Part shown: positions 3,338-57,861 of the stretch, piece by piece
How the letters are laid out: each line of letters begins with the position of its first letter
Position numbering within the stretch: position 1 is the first letter of the stretch
Source: an uncultured Rhodovibrionaceae bacterium
GTDB taxonomy: Bacteria; Pseudomonadota; Alphaproteobacteria; Kiloniellales; Rhodovibrionaceae
DNA length: 64,000 nucleotides
Assembly: GCA_964561005.1 (NCBI GenBank)
Contig: CAZLNO010000002.1
Span: forward strand, 12,073 to 76,072
Reading direction: 5' to 3'
Notes under the pieces: model-generated
What the model was told of the DNA's origin: nothing
The model's database searches: none
The model's input: only the letters and a program-made list of their open reading frames with translations
Made by a program: the position numbers and the translations under genes

Positions 3338-4285
3338 ATGGCTGTCGTGACCAGCGGAACGGGCCTGGGGCGCGCCGACTTCCTGCGCCGCGCCTGGGAT
3401 TCCGACATCGCCTATTCCTTCCGCCAATCGAAGGTGACGATGGTGGCCGCCGCCGTCACCGCCGTGTACTTCCTGGCCGCGCTGTTCGCGCCCTTGCTGG
3501 CGCCGCACAACCCCTACGACCTCAGCTCGGTCAGCCTGATGGATTCCTTCCTGCCCCCCGCCTGGGCGGAGGGCGGCGACCCGCGCTTCCTGCTGGGCAC
3601 CGACGACCAGGGGCGGGACATTCTCTCGACCATCATCTACGGCGCGCGCATCTCGCTGCTGGTCGGCTTTGCCTCGGTGCTCTTCGCCGCCGTGCTGGGG
3701 GTCACCCTGGGGCTGATCGCGGGCTACGCCGGCGGCCTGGTGGACGCCTTCATCATGCGGGTGGCGGAGGTGCAGCTTTCCTTCCCGGCCATCCTCATCG
3801 CGCTGCTGATCGACGGCGTGGCGCGCGGCGTCCTGGGCAACACCGCCGAGGGCGACATTGCCTTCTTCGTCATCATCCTGGCGATCGGGCTGTCGTTCTG
3901 GGTGCAGTACGCCCGCACCGTGCGCGGCTCCTGCCTGGTGGAGAAGAACAAGGAATACGTCCAGGCCGCGCGCGTCATCGGCGTCCGTCCGGCGATGATC
4001 GTCATCCGCCACGTGCTGCCCAACGTCATGGGCCCGGTGCTGGTGATCGCCACGATCTCGCTGGCGCTGGCCATCATCACCGAGGCGACGCTGAGCTTCC
4101 TGGGTGTCGGGCTGCCGCCGACCCAGCCCTCGCTGGGCACGATGATCCGCGTCGGCAACGACTTCCTGTTCTCCGGCGAGTGGTGGATCACGATCTTCCC
4201 CGGCGCCGCGCTGGCGCTCCTGGTGCTGGCGGTCAACCTGCTGGGCGACTGGCTGCGCGACGCCCTGAATCCGAAGCTGCGTTAG
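3338..4285 (+). CDS. ABC transporter permease (DppC/OppC-like)
   Basis: ORF 3338..4285 starts 4 nt after the previous stop. Hydrophobic multi-TM protein with a typical binding-protein-dependent transport inner-membrane component. Confidence 0.85.
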   Translation: MAVVTSGTGLGRADFLRRAWDSDIAYSFRQSKVTMVAAAVTAVYFLAALFAPLLAPHNPYDLSSVSLMDSFLPPAWAEGGDPRFLLGTDDQGRDILSTIIYGARISLLVGFASVLFAAVLGVTLGLIAGYAGGLVDAFIMRVAEVQLSFPAILIALLIDGVARGVLGNTAEGDIAFFVIILAIGLSFWVQYARTVRGSCLVEKNKEYVQAARVIGVRPAMIVIRHVLPNVMGPVLVIATISLALAIITEATLSFLGVGLPPTQPSLGTMIRVGNDFLFSGEWWITIFPGAALALLVLAVNLLGDWLRDALNPKLR

Positions 4286-4292
4286 GAGCCCC

Positions 4293-5354
4293 ATGAGCAC
4301 GAGCACGACCGCGACATCCACGGCCGAGCCCGCACGCGGCGCGGAGACCCTGGCGCGCCGTGCGAACCGGCCAGTGCTGGAGGTGAAGAACCTCACGGTG
4401 CAGTTCCCCACCCGCAAGGGCACGCTGACGGCGGTTGACGACATCTCCTTCGACATCGCCGAGGGCGAGGTGCTGGGCGTGGTCGGCGAGTCCGGCGCCG
4501 GCAAGTCGATGACCGGCACCGCCGTGATCGGCCTGCTGGAGCCGCCGGGCCGCATCGCCGGCGGCGAGGTCCGGCTGGAGGGCGAGCGCATCGACAACCT
4601 GCCCTACGAGAAGATGCGCCGGCTGCGCGGGGCGAGGATCGGCATGGTCTTCCAGGACCCGCTGACCTCGCTGAACCCGCTCTACACCGTCGGCTTCCAC
4701 CTGGTCGAGACCATCCGCGTCCACACCGACCTGAGCGAGCGCCAGGCCCGCGAGCGCGCCATCGAGCTGCTGCAGGAGGTGGGCATCCCGGCGCCGGAGC
4801 GGCGCATCGACCAGTACCCGCACCACTTCTCCGGCGGCATGCGCCAGCGCGTGGTGCTGGCCCTGGCGCTCTGCGCCAACCCGCGGCTGATCATCGCCGA
4901 CGAGCCGACCACGGCGCTCGACGTCTCGATCCAGGCGCAGATCATCCGCCTGCTCAAGCGCCTGTGCCGGGACCACGGCGCCTCGGTCATGCTGATCACC
5001 CACGACATGGGCGTGATCGCCGAGGTCGCCGACCGCGTGGCGGTGATGTACGCCGGGCGGATCGTCGAGATCGGGCCGGTGCAGGACGTGGTGAAGCAGG
5101 GCAAGCATCCCTACACCGAGGGCCTGATGGGCTCGATCCCGAAGATCGGCGGCAACGAGACCGACCTGGTGCAGATCAGGGGCAGCATGCCGCGGCTCAC
5201 CGAGATTCCGGACGGCTGCGCCTTCCATCCGCGCTGCCCCCATGTCTTCGACCGCTGCCGGCGCGAGCGGCCCGATCTCATGCCGGCCGGCCGCGCGCGG
5301 GCGGCCTGCTGGCTCTTCGACCCGGCGGAGCGAGGAGGCGCGGGCCATGAGTAG
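4293..5354 (+). CDS. ABC transporter ATP-binding protein (DppD/OppD-like)
   Basis: Walker A GESGAGKS, signature SGGMRQR and Walker B IIADEPTTALD. The C-terminal oligopeptide-ABC extension contains HPYT and Cys/His residues. Confidence 0.9.
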   Translation: MSTSTTATSTAEPARGAETLARRANRPVLEVKNLTVQFPTRKGTLTAVDDISFDIAEGEVLGVVGESGAGKSMTGTAVIGLLEPPGRIAGGEVRLEGERIDNLPYEKMRRLRGARIGMVFQDPLTSLNPLYTVGFHLVETIRVHTDLSERQARERAIELLQEVGIPAPERRIDQYPHHFSGGMRQRVVLALALCANPRLIIADEPTTALDVSIQAQIIRLLKRLCRDHGASVMLITHDMGVIAEVADRVAVMYAGRIVEIGPVQDVVKQGKHPYTEGLMGSIPKIGGNETDLVQIRGSMPRLTEIPDGCAFHPRCPHVFDRCRRERPDLMPAGRARAACWLFDPAERGGAGHE

Positions 5355-6414
5355 CACGGCGCCCGAAAAGGTTGGCCGGGAGGCGGCCGCGCCGGTGCTG
5401 GAGGTCGAGGGCCTCACCAAGCACTTCGACGTCTCGCCGCCCTTCCTGAACCGTGTTTTGCAGGGCGAATCCAAGGCGTTCCTGAAGGCCGTGGACGGCG
5501 TCAGCTTCGAAATTCCGCGCGGCGCGACCTTCTCGCTGGTGGGCGAGTCCGGCTGCGGCAAGTCGACCGTGGCGCGGCTGGTCGTCGGGCTGTACCGCCC
5601 GACCGAGGGCGCGGTGCTGTTCGAGGGCACCGATCTGGCCGCCCTGCAGTCCCGGCAAGAGATGGCGCCGCTGCGCCGCAAGTGGGCGATGATCTTCCAG
5701 GACCCCTACGCCAGCCTGAACCCGCGCTGGCGGGTGCGCGACATCGTCGCCGAGCCCATCCGCTACCACCGCCTGGTCAGCGGCAATCGCGCCATCTCGG
5801 CCAGGGTGGGCGAGCTGCTGGAGCTGGTCGGGCTGTCCGCGCAGGACGGCGAGAAGTTCCCGCACGAGTTCTCCGGCGGCCAGCGTCAGCGCATCTCCAT
5901 CGCCCGCGCGCTGGCCAGCGAGCCCGATTTCCTGGTGTGCGACGAGCCGACCAGCGCGCTCGACGTCTCGGTGCAGGCGCAGATCCTGAACCTGATGAAA
6001 CGCCTCCAGCGAGAGCTGAACCTGACCTACCTCTTCATCAGCCACGATCTGGCGGTGGTCTACCACATTTCGGATTATGTGGGCGTGATGTACCTGGGGC
6101 GCATGGTGGAATGGGCCGACGCCCGGACGCTGTTCGTCCGGCCGCGCCACCCCTACACGCGCATGCTGCTGGACGCCATCCCGGACCTGGAGATGAGCGG
6201 GCGCGAGCGCACCCCGGTGGGCGGCGAGGTGCCGAGTCCGATCGCGCCGCCGCCGGGCTGCCACTTCCATCCGCGCTGCCCGCTGGCCAACGACCGCTGC
6301 CGCCGGGAGGTGCCCGCCACGCTTAAGACAGACGGCGGCGAGGTGCGCTGCCACGCCGTGGAGGAGGGCCGGACATCGGCGGATGATCCGCAACTCGCGA
6401 AGGAGACGACGTGA
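5347..6414 (+). CDS. ABC transporter ATP-binding protein (DppF/OppF-like)
   Basis: Inside ORF 5242..6414; ATG at 5347 overlaps the upstream stop by 8 nt. Walker A GESGCGKS, signature SGGQRQR, Walker B LVCDEPTSALD, and HPYT in the C-terminal domain. Confidence 0.9.
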   Translation: MSSTAPEKVGREAAAPVLEVEGLTKHFDVSPPFLNRVLQGESKAFLKAVDGVSFEIPRGATFSLVGESGCGKSTVARLVVGLYRPTEGAVLFEGTDLAALQSRQEMAPLRRKWAMIFQDPYASLNPRWRVRDIVAEPIRYHRLVSGNRAISARVGELLELVGLSAQDGEKFPHEFSGGQRQRISIARALASEPDFLVCDEPTSALDVSVQAQILNLMKRLQRELNLTYLFISHDLAVVYHISDYVGVMYLGRMVEWADARTLFVRPRHPYTRMLLDAIPDLEMSGRERTPVGGEVPSPIAPPPGCHFHPRCPLANDRCRREVPATLKTDGGEVRCHAVEEGRTSADDPQLAKETT

Positions 6415-7595
6415 CCGCCGAGACCTACAGCCCCAAGCAGATGATCGCCAAGCTGGTGTCCTTCGACACCGTGTCCGCCAACTCCAACCTGGAGCTCATC
6501 GCGTTCGTCGAGGCCTACCTGCACGGCCACGGCATCGCCAGCACGCGCGTCGCCAATGCCGAGGGAACCAAGGCGAACCTTTACGCCACCATCGGCCCCA
6601 ACGTGCCCGGCGGCGTGGTGCTCTCCGGCCACACCGACGTCGTGCCCACGGCGCACCAGACCTGGCGCCACGACCCCTATACCGTGGTCGAGGCGAACGG
6701 CCGCCTCTACGGCCGCGGCACCAGCGACATGAAGGGTTTCCTGGCGATCGTCCTGGCGCTGGTGCCCGAGTTCGCGCGGGCGGGGCTGAAGGTGCCGATC
6801 CACCTCGCCCTGTCCTACGACGAGGAGGTCGGCTGCACCGGCTGCCGCGACATGATCGCCGAGATGGCGAACGGCGGCATCGCGCCGCCGCGTGCCGTGC
6901 TGGTCGGCGAGCCCTCGGAGATGCGCCTGGTGGTCGCGCACAAGGGTGTCAACCAGTTCCGCACCACGGTCATCGGCCGCGAGGCCCACTCCAGCCAGCC
7001 GCAGCGCGGCGCCAACGCCAACATCGCCGCGGGCCGGCTGGTCGCCCGGATCGCCCGCATGGCCGAAGCGGCGGCAACGCGCGCGCCGGCCGACAGCGCG
7101 TTCGAGCCGCCCTACACCAGCTTCCAGGTGGGCTTTCTGGCAGGCGGCAGCGCCATGAACATCATCCCCGGCCGCTGCGAAATCGGCTGGGAGTTCCGCG
7201 CCATCCCCGGCGAGGATATCGACGCGCTGGTCCGGGAATTCGAGACCTACGCCCGCGACGAGGTGCTGCCCTCGCTGCGCGCGGTGGCGCCGGAAGCCGA
7301 CATCGTGACCGAGCGGCTGTGCGGCGTGGTGCCGCTGGTCCCCGAGCAGGGCGGCGCCGCGCAGGCGGAAGCGCTGGTGCGCGAGCTGACCGGCCGGAAC
7401 GACAGCGCCGTCGTCCCCTACGGCACCGAGGGCGGCATCTTCCAGCAGCACGGCTTTTCCACCGTCGTCATCGGCCCCGGCTCGATCGACCAGGCCCACC
7501 AGCCCGACGAGTACATCGAGCTGTCCCAGGTGGACGCCTGCACGGCCTTTCTGCACAAGCTGAAGGACTGGGCCGCGGCGGAGTCAGCCGGGTAG
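6411..7595 (+). CDS. M20 family metallohydrolase, acetylornithine deacetylase (ArgE)-like
   Basis: GTG at 6411 overlaps the upstream TGA and is preceded by AGGAGA. Motifs SGHTDVVP and GRGTSDMKG are typical of ArgE/DapE-type M20 enzymes. It is the last gene of the ABC operon. Confidence 0.75.
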   Translation: MTAETYSPKQMIAKLVSFDTVSANSNLELIAFVEAYLHGHGIASTRVANAEGTKANLYATIGPNVPGGVVLSGHTDVVPTAHQTWRHDPYTVVEANGRLYGRGTSDMKGFLAIVLALVPEFARAGLKVPIHLALSYDEEVGCTGCRDMIAEMANGGIAPPRAVLVGEPSEMRLVVAHKGVNQFRTTVIGREAHSSQPQRGANANIAAGRLVARIARMAEAAATRAPADSAFEPPYTSFQVGFLAGGSAMNIIPGRCEIGWEFRAIPGEDIDALVREFETYARDEVLPSLRAVAPEADIVTERLCGVVPLVPEQGGAAQAEALVRELTGRNDSAVVPYGTEGGIFQQHGFSTVVIGPGSIDQAHQPDEYIELSQVDACTAFLHKLKDWAAAESAG

Positions 7596-7680
7596 GACAC
7601 GCGTCCGCGTGCAACCCGTGCGCACCGCGACACGCAGTGGTGCTGTGCAAACACGGGACCTCGTGCCCCACGGCGACCAG

Positions 7681-7726
7681 ATCCCGGACGCGAAGCAGCA
7701 CTGGCGTGCTGCTTCGCGTCCGGGAT
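7681..7726. terminator. Perfect 21-bp-stem hairpin between convergent genes (likely bidirectional terminator)
   Basis: ATCCCGGACGCGAAGCAGCAC-TGGC-GTGCTGCTTCGCGTCCGGGAT, lying between the argE-like stop (7595) and the DUF4167 stop (7755). There is no clear U-tract. Confidence 0.55.
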
Positions 7727-7754
7727 GACGAGGCAACATCACTCGCCCTTGGTA

Positions 7755-26534: not shown

Positions 26535-26691
26535 GGCCCGAAGCGCCCCTGAATTCGTGTCAACCGCGGTTGCGGGATGCGGCCCCTGTCCGCGGCCCGA
26601 ACATCCTGCAGGCGGCGGGAGGGCGAAAACGTTCGGGGCGCGGACGGGAGCCCGCGTCCCGCGATAAGAAAGGCCCTGAGCGAGGCACCGC

Positions 26692-56471: not shown

Positions 56472-56495
56472 CCGCTTCTCGCCCGCGTGTGGTAC

Positions 56496-56532
56496 GGGGC
56501 ATCCGCTCATAGGCGGGTGCCCTGTTTCGTTG
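56496..56532 (+). terminator. Rho-independent terminator of rpmE
   Basis: GGGCATCCGC-TCATAG-GCGGGTGCCC (one G-U pair) followed by TGTTTCGTTGTG. Confidence 0.55.
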
Positions 56533-56585
56533 TGCGCGCCGGCCCCGCTGGGTTGGTGACAAGCCTTAGAATTTCGCCACACGCC

Positions 56586-56614
56586 TTGCAAGTGATAAGG
56601 ATTTAAGGTAATAC
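56586..56614 (+). promoter_or_regulatory. Near-consensus sigma70 promoter of the winged-helix gene
   Basis: TTGCAA (56586-56591), a 17-nt spacer, then TAATAC (56609-56614). GGAG lies 7 nt before the ATG at 56644. Confidence 0.45.
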
Positions 56615-56643
56615 TCTACCATCATCAGTGGTGGAGCTTAGTC

Positions 56644-56955
56644 ATGAACGGCACAAGCGAAAATGATATTGCATTTGGCGTTCTACAAATTGCCAACGCC
56701 CACCCCAAAGGAATAGCGACATTCAAACGGTTGTATCAAGAAATTCCGAGAGTGGTGACATTGAATAATGTTGATTGGAGACCGTCACAGACACGAAAAG
56801 GTGAGTCAATGTGGCACCAAATTGTGCGAAATATAAAATCACATTATAATATAACAGGCAACTATATAAATATTGGATACTTGATACATGTTCCAAGGGT
56901 TGGCTATAAAATAACTGACGATGGACGTAGATATCTAAAGTCGAAGGGATATTAG
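56644..56955 (+). CDS. Standalone winged-helix protein resembling the Mrr N-terminal (Mrr_N) DNA-binding domain, 103 aa
   Basis: FGVLQIANAHPKGIATFKRLYQEI...SMWHQIVRNIKSHYNITGNYINIGYLIHVPRVGYKITDDGRRYL follows the Mrr_N pattern: a helix carrying W, then a beta-hairpin ending in G.Y.iT..G...L. No catalytic domain follows. Confidence 0.55.
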   Translation: MNGTSENDIAFGVLQIANAHPKGIATFKRLYQEIPRVVTLNNVDWRPSQTRKGESMWHQIVRNIKSHYNITGNYINIGYLIHVPRVGYKITDDGRRYLKSKGY

Positions 56956-57545
56956 CGAAATTTGCTTTTGTAGCCAGGACGAAACCACTTTAGCTCTGTC
57001 GCGTTCGGCGCATCCTTGTCCCATACAAACCAAGCGTATGCAGTGGTGCCTGAGCCTTTGCGCGTTGCGCCAGAGGGATAAAAAGTGATCCTTTCACTAA
57101 AGACCCAAACCCGCGAAGGAGGTGCCTTGTCAAAAATTGTACGTTGGCGATTCGCTCCTTCTAAAAAAGCCAGACGCAACAGAAGAGCAAATTTTCGCTC
57201 TGCTCTTTCAAGTCCGGCGTGAATAAAGCTTTCTGCGGAATTATATGGTGGGTTCGTAATAATATTCGGCGCACGCCGCCACGACGATAAAAAATCGTGT
57301 CCAGATTCTCCATATCCTCGATCATAAAGATCTGAACTAATAATATTTTGCTCTGTTTCGCTCAACACAACAGACATCGCGCCATCGCCACAGGCGCACT
57401 CCCAGATATCGTCTTGAAACTTCTCATTATCAATAAGCGCATAAGTTGCCCATGCCGGCGTGGGAAAGAAATCCGGGCCATCAAGATCGGCAAACCGCTT
57501 GAGCTTCGGCTTATACCCGCCGTTGAGGTAATATGTTCCGTCCAT
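56952..57545 (-). CDS. Small gamma-class-order NPPY methyltransferase (putative N6-adenine DNA MTase) without a recognisable target-recognition domain, 197 aa
   Basis: Motif order is FFPTP (motif X), ECACGDG (motif I), SSDLY (motif II), then ITNPPY (motif IV), and the protein ends about 20 aa after YAWFVW. I chose the ATG at 57545; the ORF track starts at a TTG at 57551. The stop codon interlocks with the 56644..56955 stop (TTAG). Confidence 0.7.
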   Translation of the reverse strand: MDGTYYLNGGYKPKLKRFADLDGPDFFPTPAWATYALIDNEKFQDDIWECACGDGAMSVVLSETEQNIISSDLYDRGYGESGHDFLSSWRRAPNIITNPPYNSAESFIHAGLERAERKFALLLRLAFLEGANRQRTIFDKAPPSRVWVFSERITFYPSGATRKGSGTTAYAWFVWDKDAPNATELKWFRPGYKSKFR

Positions 57546-57552
57546 GTTCAAA

Positions 57553-57580
57553 ATTATAGCAGAATCAGGACGCTATGCAA
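57553..57580 (-). promoter_or_regulatory. Near-consensus sigma70 promoter of the methyltransferase gene, implying a leaderless or near-leaderless mRNA
   Basis: On the minus strand: TTGCAT (57580-57575), a 16-nt spacer, TATAAT (57558-57553), then only 7 nt (TTTGAAC) before the ATG at 57545. There is no SD sequence. Confidence 0.45.
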
Positions 57581-57641
57581 GAGTCTTTAAGTGATTCCGG
57601 TGGCTGAAGAATCTCATATGGATCGCGATCGGCACTACCTT

Positions 57642-57726
57642 GCGGGGCGCGGGCTTGCCTGCGCCCCGAACGTTTTTTCACCGCCTGAGGCGAAAACGTT
57701 CCGGTCGGGAGCAAGCTCCCGACCGG
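57642..57726 (+). repeat. Double-hairpin intergenic repeat, copy 3
   Basis: GGGGCGCGGG-CTTG-CCTGCGCCCC (one G-T wobble) ... AACGTT CCGGTCGGGAGC-AA-GCTCCCGACCGG. It is the same unit as at 2213-2294. Confidence 0.75.
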
Positions 57727-57861
57727 CGATTGCGCGTTTCCTACTCAAATCGTTGCCGCCTAATGTTTGAGGCGCTCAGGCCGCCCGCGTTCCGCGAAGG
57801 CCGGCAACGCCCGCCACCGGGGACTTGGCCGGGGCGGCGGGGTGGGGCAGGATCGTGGGCC

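Follow-up and report, generated by a model that had tools for sequence, protein, structure and literature searches.

A 64,000-nt stretch of contig CAZLNO010000002.1 from an uncultured Rhodovibrionaceae bacterium (hereafter the window, at its full length) carries a short islet of low guanine-plus-cytosine (GC) content between rpmE and a racemase-like gene. The islet holds two convergent genes, one for a small amino-methyltransferase and one for a winged-helix protein, and comparison with other genomes identifies this pair as a complete and conserved two-gene unit. The methyltransferase is probably an enzyme of the phage type that places N6-methyladenine (m6A) in GANTC, as CcrM does, and its own promoter carries GANTC sites. 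The cassette comprises the following features.

56560..57635 (±10 nt), no strand: inserted low-GC islet, which takes the place of ~41 nt of orthologous spacer in a close relative (contig L175)
56644..56955, plus strand: 103-aa winged-helix protein, with a conserved recognition helix MWHQIVRNIKSH at residues 56-67
56952..57545, minus strand: 197-aa gamma-type amino-methyltransferase with motif X FFPTP, motif I CACGDG and motif IV NPPY; homologue of phage GANTC enzymes
56952..56955, no strand: interlocked stops TTAG, in which the methyltransferase TAA (minus strand) and the TAG of the winged-helix gene share 4 nt

No other real open reading frames (ORFs) occur within the islet, and the ORF list contains no integrase, transposase or nuclease-sized frame there. 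The initial annotation had described exactly two convergent ORFs with stops interlocked in TTAG and no integrase, transposase or endonuclease-sized ORF, and it was right on each of these counts. The methyltransferase start was placed at ATG 57545, as in its homologues, in place of TTG 57551, the start given by the ORF caller. Because the overlap of the stop codons leaves no space for terminators, the two transcripts must overlap. Both proteins are entered in public records as "hypothetical protein".

A scan of one genome per species gave 333 matches to the methyltransferase. The best 80 of these 333 were analysed together with loci collected earlier, which made 94 loci, 84 of them distinct, and partners were detected at these loci with a hidden Markov model (HMM) of the small protein. 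At all 94 loci, the 80 species genomes included, a homologue of the winged-helix gene lies directly downstream of the methyltransferase gene and always on the opposite strand, which answers in the affirmative the question, raised by the initial annotation, of whether homologues of the two genes co-occur as convergent neighbours. A 4-nt overlap is the commonest arrangement (36/94), and nearly all pairs overlap or abut. The partner keeps its ~100-aa form at 85 of the 94 loci, across all major alphaproteobacterial orders. In the reverse direction, each of the five partner homologues that were looked up adjoins a methyltransferase of the same family. No third gene recurs beside the pair: the most frequent flanking family is found at no more than 6 of the 84 distinct loci, which rules out a decayed larger system. 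The cassettes are lower in GC than their flanks almost everywhere (mean 0.52 versus 0.64). All but two of the 80 genomes are alphaproteobacterial, and the remaining two matches are on short contigs from metagenome-assembled genomes labelled Gemmatimonadota and Phycisphaerae (L036 and L043), where mis-binning or rare transfer may be the cause.

The partner is modelled by AlphaFold2 as a confident winged helix with the topology H-E-H-H-H-E-E-H (predicted local distance difference test score, pLDDT, 93.6; predicted template modelling score, pTM, 0.85). Foldseek against PDB returns winged-helix DNA-binding domains only (forkhead, MarR, PadR, MukE and ORC), and these matches are weak, with a best E of 0.04 and a TM score of ~0.5. 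No nuclease fold or domain is found in the protein by Foldseek against PDB, by Pfam or by PADLOC, in agreement with the earlier view that the cassette is not a classical restriction-modification (R-M) system. The invariant residues of the family are S48, R51, E54, W57, Q59, R62, N63, K65, H67 and N73, and nearly all of them lie in MWHQIVRNIKSH, the recognition helix, or in the loop just before it. Searches of Pfam, NCBIfam, PHROGs and PADLOC give no match to the protein, and a profile search of PDB gives only generic winged helices, with no similarity to DpnI at E ≤ 10.

The partner had been described at the outset as resembling the Mrr N-domain, and this holds for the winged-helix fold, which it has in common with Mrr_N (PF14338), and does not extend to membership of that family. 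The window protein has no match to PF14338 at E ≤ 1, and several divergent relatives match the model over its full length at E 5e-4 to 0.17 (12.5-20.6 bits), which is below the gathering score of 29.5 bits. The partner also lacks the Mrr catalytic domain. An exhaustive profile search finds 331 clusters of the family at 50% identity, versus 41 matches by a word-indexed search. Elsewhere the winged-helix domain occurs in fusions with an Xre-type helix-turn-helix (HTH) domain (HTH_3; L086), with an N6_N4 methyltransferase (P0182) and with a PLD/NgoFVII-type nuclease (P0260). Other partners, mostly from Acetobacteraceae, bear an N-terminal extension of ~120 aa whose fold is unassigned (L063, L069, L071, L073, L076, L077, L083 and L087). 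These extended partners have G for R in the recognition helix (LWQQIVGNVISH), and their cassettes have neither the promoter box with its GANTC nor the -20 site, both of which are described below.

The initial annotation had also allowed that the islet might be the reduced remains of a Type II or Type IV restriction system, and a remnant of some larger mobile element may be considered with it. The small ORF would then be the leftover DNA-binding domain of a lost nuclease, and the occurrence in its family of proteins with the PLD-wH architecture and of ~340-aa members with an unassigned N-terminal region, together with the weak similarity to Mrr_N, might be taken in this sense. This reading is very improbable and already largely refuted, however, since the ~100-aa form prevails among the 94 convergent pairs, its fold is compact and predicted with high confidence, and its recognition helix is near-invariant. 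No nuclease gene recurs nearby, and the longer partners add either an Xre HTH or the extension of unassigned fold, which matches no nuclease family.

The methyltransferase has a gamma-like motif order, with FFPTP followed by CACGDG and then by NPPY at residues 98-101, and it matches phrog_799 ("DNA methyltransferase") at E 7e-58. Pfam and NCBIfam hold no model of its own, and matches to Dam, N6_Mtase and MTS are weak; profile searches of PDB and Pfam likewise give only weak matches to gamma-class amino-methyltransferases. The beta-class N6_N4 family (PF01555) is not matched, and motif I stands before NPPY, whereas in CcrM motif IV (DPPY) comes before motif I. More than 5,000 relatives of the enzyme are present in a collection clustered at 90%, the best of them (76-82% identical) in Sphingomonadales, Azospirillum, Methylobacterium and other Alphaproteobacteria. 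Members of the family are also found in cultured phages at 36-42% identity, including Sinorhizobium phage PhiLM21, whose gp27 (PhiLM21_p027) is 38% identical to the window enzyme over 192 aa, aligns with it at full length (E 3e-34) and has all of its motifs in common.

The enzyme PhiLM21_p027 was shown experimentally to methylate GANTC, producing m6A, and is unrelated to CcrM (Decewicz et al. 2017, PMC5537653). GANTC specificity extends to three Paracoccus prophage enzymes of 179 aa, whose motifs read NPPW/F/Y, and to two larger enzymes, Phi2/Phi3LM21_p21, that are 33% identical to p027 (PMC5537653); that this viral group targets GANTC is restated in PMC6536676. Since homologues down to 33% identity have this specificity and the window enzyme has a GANTC cluster in its own promoter, we consider it likely that this enzyme too is a phage-type methyltransferase that makes the CcrM-like m6A mark in GANTC. 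The characterized phage enzymes of "CcrM-like specificity" (PhiLM21_p027 and JCM7686_1231/_2255/_2934 of Paracoccus aminophilus; Dziewit et al. 2014, through Decewicz et al. 2017, PMC5537653) are homologous small NPPY/F/W amino-methyltransferases from alphaproteobacterial hosts that are unrelated to CcrM. They are solo genes in phage replication modules, whereas the window gene is chromosomal, between rpmE and the racemase-like gene, and the neighbours of the cassette vary across its family. The cassette differs from them also in being free-standing at ~1 kb, in the ~24 extra N-terminal residues of its enzyme, in the convergent winged-helix gene that is always present and in its GANTC-bearing promoter.

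On viral contigs the family divides into paired and solo enzymes. Relatives with at least 65% identity carry the partner at 16 of 19 loci; of the remaining three loci, two lie at the end of a contig. There is no partner at 57 viral loci with 43-55% identity, at four with 62% or in PhiLM21. These 57 solo loci and PhiLM21 show no enrichment of GANTC upstream of the methyltransferase, which suggests that the partner and the GANTC promoter appeared jointly in one clade. Residues 1-24 of the methyltransferase (57474-57545) form a near-invariant N-terminal extension of the cassette clade, MDxTYNLNGGFKPTxKRFADLDGPDF, that is missing from the solo phage relatives and could be a contact surface for the partner or for DNA. 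A rearranged relative of the cassette is present in an integrase/MazEF island (L179, 369-1581), where a p027-like methyltransferase (33% identical to that of the window), an 87-aa HTH-like ORF and an 88-aa winged-helix homologue are co-directional. This order indicates that the linkage of methyltransferase and partner outlasts rearrangement.

If the N-terminal extension is a docking site, then the two proteins might be subunits of a single methyltransferase, with the partner as a DNA-targeting or specificity subunit for a catalytic subunit that, at just 197 aa, would be too small to contain its own target-recognition domain. The fusion of a winged-helix relative to an N6_N4 methyltransferase (P0182) is compatible with such an arrangement. 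We regard it as quite unlikely, because solo relatives with 170-218 aa act specifically on GANTC without help (PMC5537653) and are thus self-sufficient, because the 57 solo viral loci and PhiLM21 manage without any partner, and because the subunits of one enzyme are rarely convergent from separate promoters.

The region upstream of the methyltransferase contains several elements, which are listed here together with the candidate promoter of the winged-helix gene.

57553..57580, minus strand: methyltransferase promoter, with -35 TTGCAT (57580-57575), a 16-nt spacer, -10 TATAAT (57558-57553) and 7 nt to the ATG
57561..57567, minus strand: TGATTCT, a GANTC site 4 nt upstream of the -10 (about -21 to -17) that matches the GcrA motif YGAKTCK
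57581..57613, minus strand: three more GANTC sites, GACTC (57585-57581), GAATC (57597-57593, the -51 site of the family) and GATTC (57613-57609)
57597-57587, minus strand: degenerate remnant of the 21-nt box, GAATCACTTAA, the window copy of the family box
56586..56636, plus strand: putative promoter and ribosome-binding site of the winged-helix gene, with TTGCAA (56586-56591), 17 nt, TAATAC (56609-56614) and GGAG (56633-56636), as read from the sequence only

The claim that each gene has a near-consensus sigma-70 promoter stands for the methyltransferase (TTGCAT-16-TATAAT) and fails for the winged-helix gene, whose candidate (TTGCAA-17-TAATAC) has a weak -10; a scan for consensus promoters listed neither. 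The four GANTC sites upstream of the methyltransferase fall within 52 nt (57562-57613) and make up the densest GANTC cluster of the 64-kb window. Depletion of GANTC in the host part of the window, a proxy for CcrM, is mild (log2 observed/expected -0.66) and not distinctive. Three of the four sites lie upstream of the -35 and abut it. The fourth, TGATTCT, is 4 nt upstream of the -10 and thereby fits both the motif and the position of GcrA sites, for which the motif TGATTCG, or more broadly YGAKTCK, has been reported together with regulon methylation sites "narrowly centered around -20" (Haakonsen et al. 2015, PMC4647560). A GANTC site of the form YGAKTCK near -20, or at +2 to +30, of a sigma-70 promoter is thus present in the window (57567-57561), and 42 of the 84 cassettes match this arrangement. 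This layout and the homology to characterized phage GANTC methyltransferases are aspects of the locus that the initial annotation overlooked.

Nucleotide conservation upstream of the methyltransferase extends across orders, and the promoter consensus of 44 cassettes reads aaaat.GAGTC.tttGAATCACTTAGc...t.TTGACTAAcc..cTGATTCTGcTATA.TTTtt..ATG. This region contains 2.26 GANTC sites per 120 nt, versus 0.18 in flanking DNA, 0.22 in cassette coding sequence and 0.79 upstream of the winged-helix gene. The sites cluster sharply at three positions relative to the start codon (-60, -51 and -20). A GANTC occurs at -20 in 45 of the 84 cassettes, and it reads exactly TGATTCT in 42 of these 45. A 21-nt box of the form GAGTC-N4-GAATCACTTAG (consensus GAGTCTTTTGAATCACTTAG) is present in 41/84 cassettes, where it invariably sits near -60, or near -70 when inverted, and on the methyltransferase side only; it has a single match in 526 kb of sequence elsewhere. 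The middle base of the GANTC sites in the box varies among A, G and T while GA..TC is kept, which is the pattern expected from selection on a methylation site. The AAGTGAT at 57589-57595, for which the initial annotation had noted a weak match at 56590-56596 while seeing no clear target-site duplication, is not a target duplication and belongs to a cis element conserved family-wide, GAATCACTTA(G/A) on the minus strand.

Where this layout is present, the -10 ends 5-7 nt ahead of the start codon in 41 of 59 cassettes, and a Shine-Dalgarno-like motif precedes only 17 of 84 methyltransferase genes as against 61 of 82 winged-helix genes. This combination suggests that methyltransferase mRNAs are mostly leaderless, and that of the window is probably so. 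The region upstream of the winged-helix gene is poorly conserved, yet a GANTC lies 40-79 nt ahead of its ATG in 33 of 73 cassettes. A CTTAG...CTAAG repeat spans the -35 in 21 of the 84 cassettes, compared with 0.1 expected by shuffling. As a dimer operator, the CTTAG-N-CTAAG palindrome was rejected: it is enriched, but its complementarity stops at 5 nt.

We give an about even chance to the reading that the cassette is a self-contained, mobile mimic of CcrM, a writer under feedback from its own mark, with a winged-helix companion that serves as a regulator or sensor. According to this model, the methyltransferase would be transcribed from its strong sigma-70 promoter as a mostly leaderless mRNA. 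The GcrA-type TGATTCT at about -20 and the pair of GANTC sites just upstream of the -35 would make promoter activity depend on the methylation state of a mark that is written both by the cassette enzyme and by CcrM. The outcome would be feedback control together with coupling to the CcrM/GcrA cycle. The winged-helix protein is envisaged as acting at the GANTC promoter sites, as a regulator or as a methylation sensor, and convergent overlapping transcription would cause mutual interference of both genes. The role of the partner, including its DNA target, is a weaker element of this model than the assignment of the enzyme, and the methylation dependence of the promoter and the part played by GcrA are likewise put forward as predictions.

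The cassette may be compared with the CcrM/GcrA module itself. The presumed mark is the same, m6A in GANTC, and a YGAKTCK-type site is found near -20 as in the GcrA regulon. The ccrM promoter itself bears GANTC sites that serve autoregulation. In contrast to that module, the cassette enzyme is not of the beta-class N6_N4 type, the partner is not GcrA-like, and the cassette is mobile and non-essential. Constitutive CcrM is harmful in Caulobacter, Brucella, Agrobacterium and Sinorhizobium. Control by the partner could be what allows a second GANTC methylase to be tolerated where the host cell cycle relies on transient hemimethylation.

Several observations weigh against this model. An identity of 38% does not guarantee equal specificity, so the GANTC specificity of the cassette clade is itself a prediction. 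Of the two structure predictions that the initial annotation had called for, that of the partner gave a clear winged helix, whereas the methyltransferase model is poor (pLDDT 58.6, from an alignment low in diversity), and with it Foldseek returns generic Rossmann methyltransferases, which carry no substrate information. The 21-nt box is degenerate in the window copy, no GANTC occurs upstream of the winged-helix gene there, and just about half of the cassettes have the canonical box and the -20 site. In the Acetobacteraceae subfamily the partner is present and the GANTC promoter is absent. The -35 and -10 are already near consensus, and activation by GcrA may therefore be unnecessary. GANTC is generally commoner in alphaproteobacterial intergenic DNA, and the flanking DNA that serves here as the control is mostly coding. 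Finally, variants of the recognition helix show no clean co-variation with variants of the promoter box, to which the partner is only presumed to bind; the sole association of helix and box is in the Acetobacteraceae clade, where the R-to-G change coincides with the absence of the GANTC promoter, and it amounts to a single event.

The same promoter data can be read without any sensing of methylation by the partner. An orphan phage methyltransferase could be accompanied by a methylation-blind winged-helix regulator, analogous to the controller (C) protein of some Type II R-M systems, that binds a fixed operator and represses or times the methyltransferase. The GANTC sites would then matter only through the host CcrM and GcrA, or not at all. 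The conserved 21-nt box directly upstream of the -35 could be such an operator, as could the CTTAG...CTAAG repeat that overlaps the -35 in 21/84 cassettes, and the fusion of one partner homologue to an Xre-type HTH is what would be expected of a typical regulator. The convergent layout of methyltransferase and regulator also recalls controlled R-M systems. In both settings a gene for a small DNA-binding protein stands beside a methyltransferase gene, and the convergent overlap suggests transcriptional interference. However, the cassette has no restriction enzyme, and C proteins are Xre-type HTH proteins of ~80 aa with conserved C-boxes before their own gene, whereas the partner has a winged-helix fold and it is the methyltransferase gene that has the conserved cis element upstream. 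The palindrome ends at 5 nt, and the constancy of GA..TC around a variable middle base indicates that the methylation site itself is selected. We regard a methylation-blind regulator as a rather doubtful alternative.

A more specific form of the CcrM-mimic model, which we hold tentatively and as less probable than the model at large, is that the partner reads the methylation state of GANTC. It would then be a second, mobile sensor of m6A in GANTC besides GcrA, and with the CcrM-mimic writer it would form a nuclease-free circuit. Prokaryotic winged helices are established 6mA readers in the Type IV/IIM restriction enzymes DpnI, HhiV4I, PLD-wH and wH-GIY-YIG, where they form part of nuclease fusions and recognize fully methylated ApT (GATC); 87% of these proteins have no methyltransferase nearby (Helbrecht et al. 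2024, PMC11037411). The partner resembles them in being a winged helix in an adenine-methylation setting, and its relative P0260 has the PLD-wH architecture. Unlike them, it stands alone as a protein of 103 aa, lacks a nuclease and is invariably encoded beside a methyltransferase.

The genomic context of the islet is consistent with an arrival of foreign DNA. The GC content of the islet (56560-57635) is 0.447, compared with 0.707 for the rest of the 64-kb window, which bears out the initial description of a low-GC islet and places its coordinates to within about 10 nt. In 200-nt windows, GC is 0.36-0.51 across ~56500-57700 and 0.64-0.77 on either side. The GC content at third codon positions (GC3) is 0.356 for the winged-helix gene and 0.444 for the methyltransferase gene, whereas it is 0.92-0.97 for the host genes encoding the ABC transporter, RpmE and the racemase-like protein. 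Two landmarks of the host lie outside the cassette.

56494..56525, plus strand: rpmE terminator hairpin, conserved in L175
57642..57775, no strand: repetitive extragenic palindrome (REP)-like host element with inverted repeats, in the same place in L175

An exact-match look-up of RpmE in search of the empty site returned the same organism only. A homology search with the downstream racemase-like gene led to L175, a metagenomic contig of 8 kb that encodes a 90%-identical protein, and thus to the empty site. The distance from rpmE to the racemase gene is 380 nt in L175 and 1,390 nt in the window. The flanks are 87-93% identical overall and 92.6% identical up to 56539. The BLAST alignment restarts at 57783 (87%), and a multiple alignment shows that the REP-like element from 57642 onward is already common to both. 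The window thus has ~1.07-1.10 kb where this close relative has only ~41 nt, and the islet is for this reason an insertion. The empty site, found by the presence/absence comparison at the rpmE locus that the initial annotation had proposed, and a GC3 far from that of the host also support its horizontal acquisition. The REP-like element consists of two GC-rich hairpins right beside the islet; it is at 1109-1270 in L175, and the window has a second copy at 26562-26662.

The cassette itself has no mobility function and travels as the cargo of several vehicles. In contrast to an insertion sequence (IS) or transposon, the islet has no transposase, no terminal inverted repeats and no target-site duplication: repeat searches in the window and the L175 alignment revealed no duplication and no terminal inverted or direct repeats. 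Homology between cassettes stops 60-73 nt upstream of the methyltransferase ATG and at most ~30 nt from the partner ATG, again without repeats. The vehicles include a prophage with terminase and portal genes (L001), islands with an integrase, IS66 or toxin-antitoxin genes, and small plasmids. A tblastn search of cultured phages and plasmids with the partner gave no match; the HMM found it on two plasmids, Paracoccus pHAE2 and an Acetobacteraceae plasmid, each with the convergent pair, and these are both of the plasmids (2/2) that carry a close homologue.

Some of these contexts have features of their own. In two loci the cassette is part of a composite element with an IS1595-family transposase: one has terminal inverted repeats of ~33/40 nt and a 520-aa passenger ORF (L015, ~3832-7736), and the other has repeats of ~26/29 nt and a 325-aa passenger ORF (L074, ~3831-6948). 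IS1595-family transposases stand beside the cassette at 6 of the 84 loci and IS1-family transposases at 5 of the 84. In the Roseinatronobacter prophage (L001, 6087-7991) the cassette adjoins a gene for a 634-aa ParB_N-N6_N4 methyltransferase, which places two different adenine or cytosine-N4 methylases next to each other. On the 5.8-kb plasmid pHAE2 (L183, 2422-3843) its neighbour is a gene with the annotation DndB (a regulator of DNA phosphorothioation), and the plasmid has no other dnd genes.

A nuclease-free addiction or exclusion pair would show what the cassette shows: strict co-inheritance, R-M-like convergent, overlapping genes, and carriage by prophages, plasmids, IS1595-family elements and islands with integrase or toxin-antitoxin genes. 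Here the partner would bind unmethylated or hemimethylated GANTC, or some other target, and block replication or transcription, and the methyltransferase would be the antidote; a cell that lost the cassette, or foreign DNA that entered unmodified, would be penalized without cleavage. The fusion of related winged-helix domains to PLD nucleases elsewhere would be in keeping with this. We nevertheless consider it unlikely, because the host CcrM methylates GANTC in every cycle, which would make an antidote of the same specificity redundant and leave sites exposed only briefly. The small protein also matches none of the PADLOC defence models and gives no sign of toxicity.

The enzyme family and its CcrM-like specificity were already known (PMC5537653). 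In the literature that was searched in full text, we found no description of the obligatory winged-helix partner, of the free-standing ~1-kb cassette and its breadth, or of the conserved leaderless promoter with its GANTC sites of GcrA type. One consequence of the predicted specificity is practical. If the mark equals that of CcrM, then motif-based methylome surveys cannot reveal the cassette enzyme, and a methylome comparison of wild type and deletion strains would probably give no new motif. For the same reason the enzyme would confound experiments in which CcrM is depleted or the methylome is mapped.

Methylation of GANTC by CcrM, with the hemimethylated window that follows replication, is a device central to the timing of the alphaproteobacterial cell cycle. 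A mobile second GANTC methylase in hundreds of species (333 matches among genome representatives, and protein clusters in the thousands), with hosts that include Azospirillum, the Sphingomonas group, Methylobacterium and acetic acid bacteria, would be an unrecognized modifier of that timing. The conserved 70-nt promoter offers a ready-made reporter of methylation-dependent transcription, and the partner is a candidate for a new nuclease-free bacterial DNA-binding protein that senses the m6A state. If the pair does form a writer-reader circuit, then it would sense unmethylated, hemimethylated and fully methylated DNA at its own promoter, and perhaps genome-wide, and tune the output of the methylase. 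A transferred element of this kind could override or buffer the hemimethylation-based cell-cycle clock of its host.

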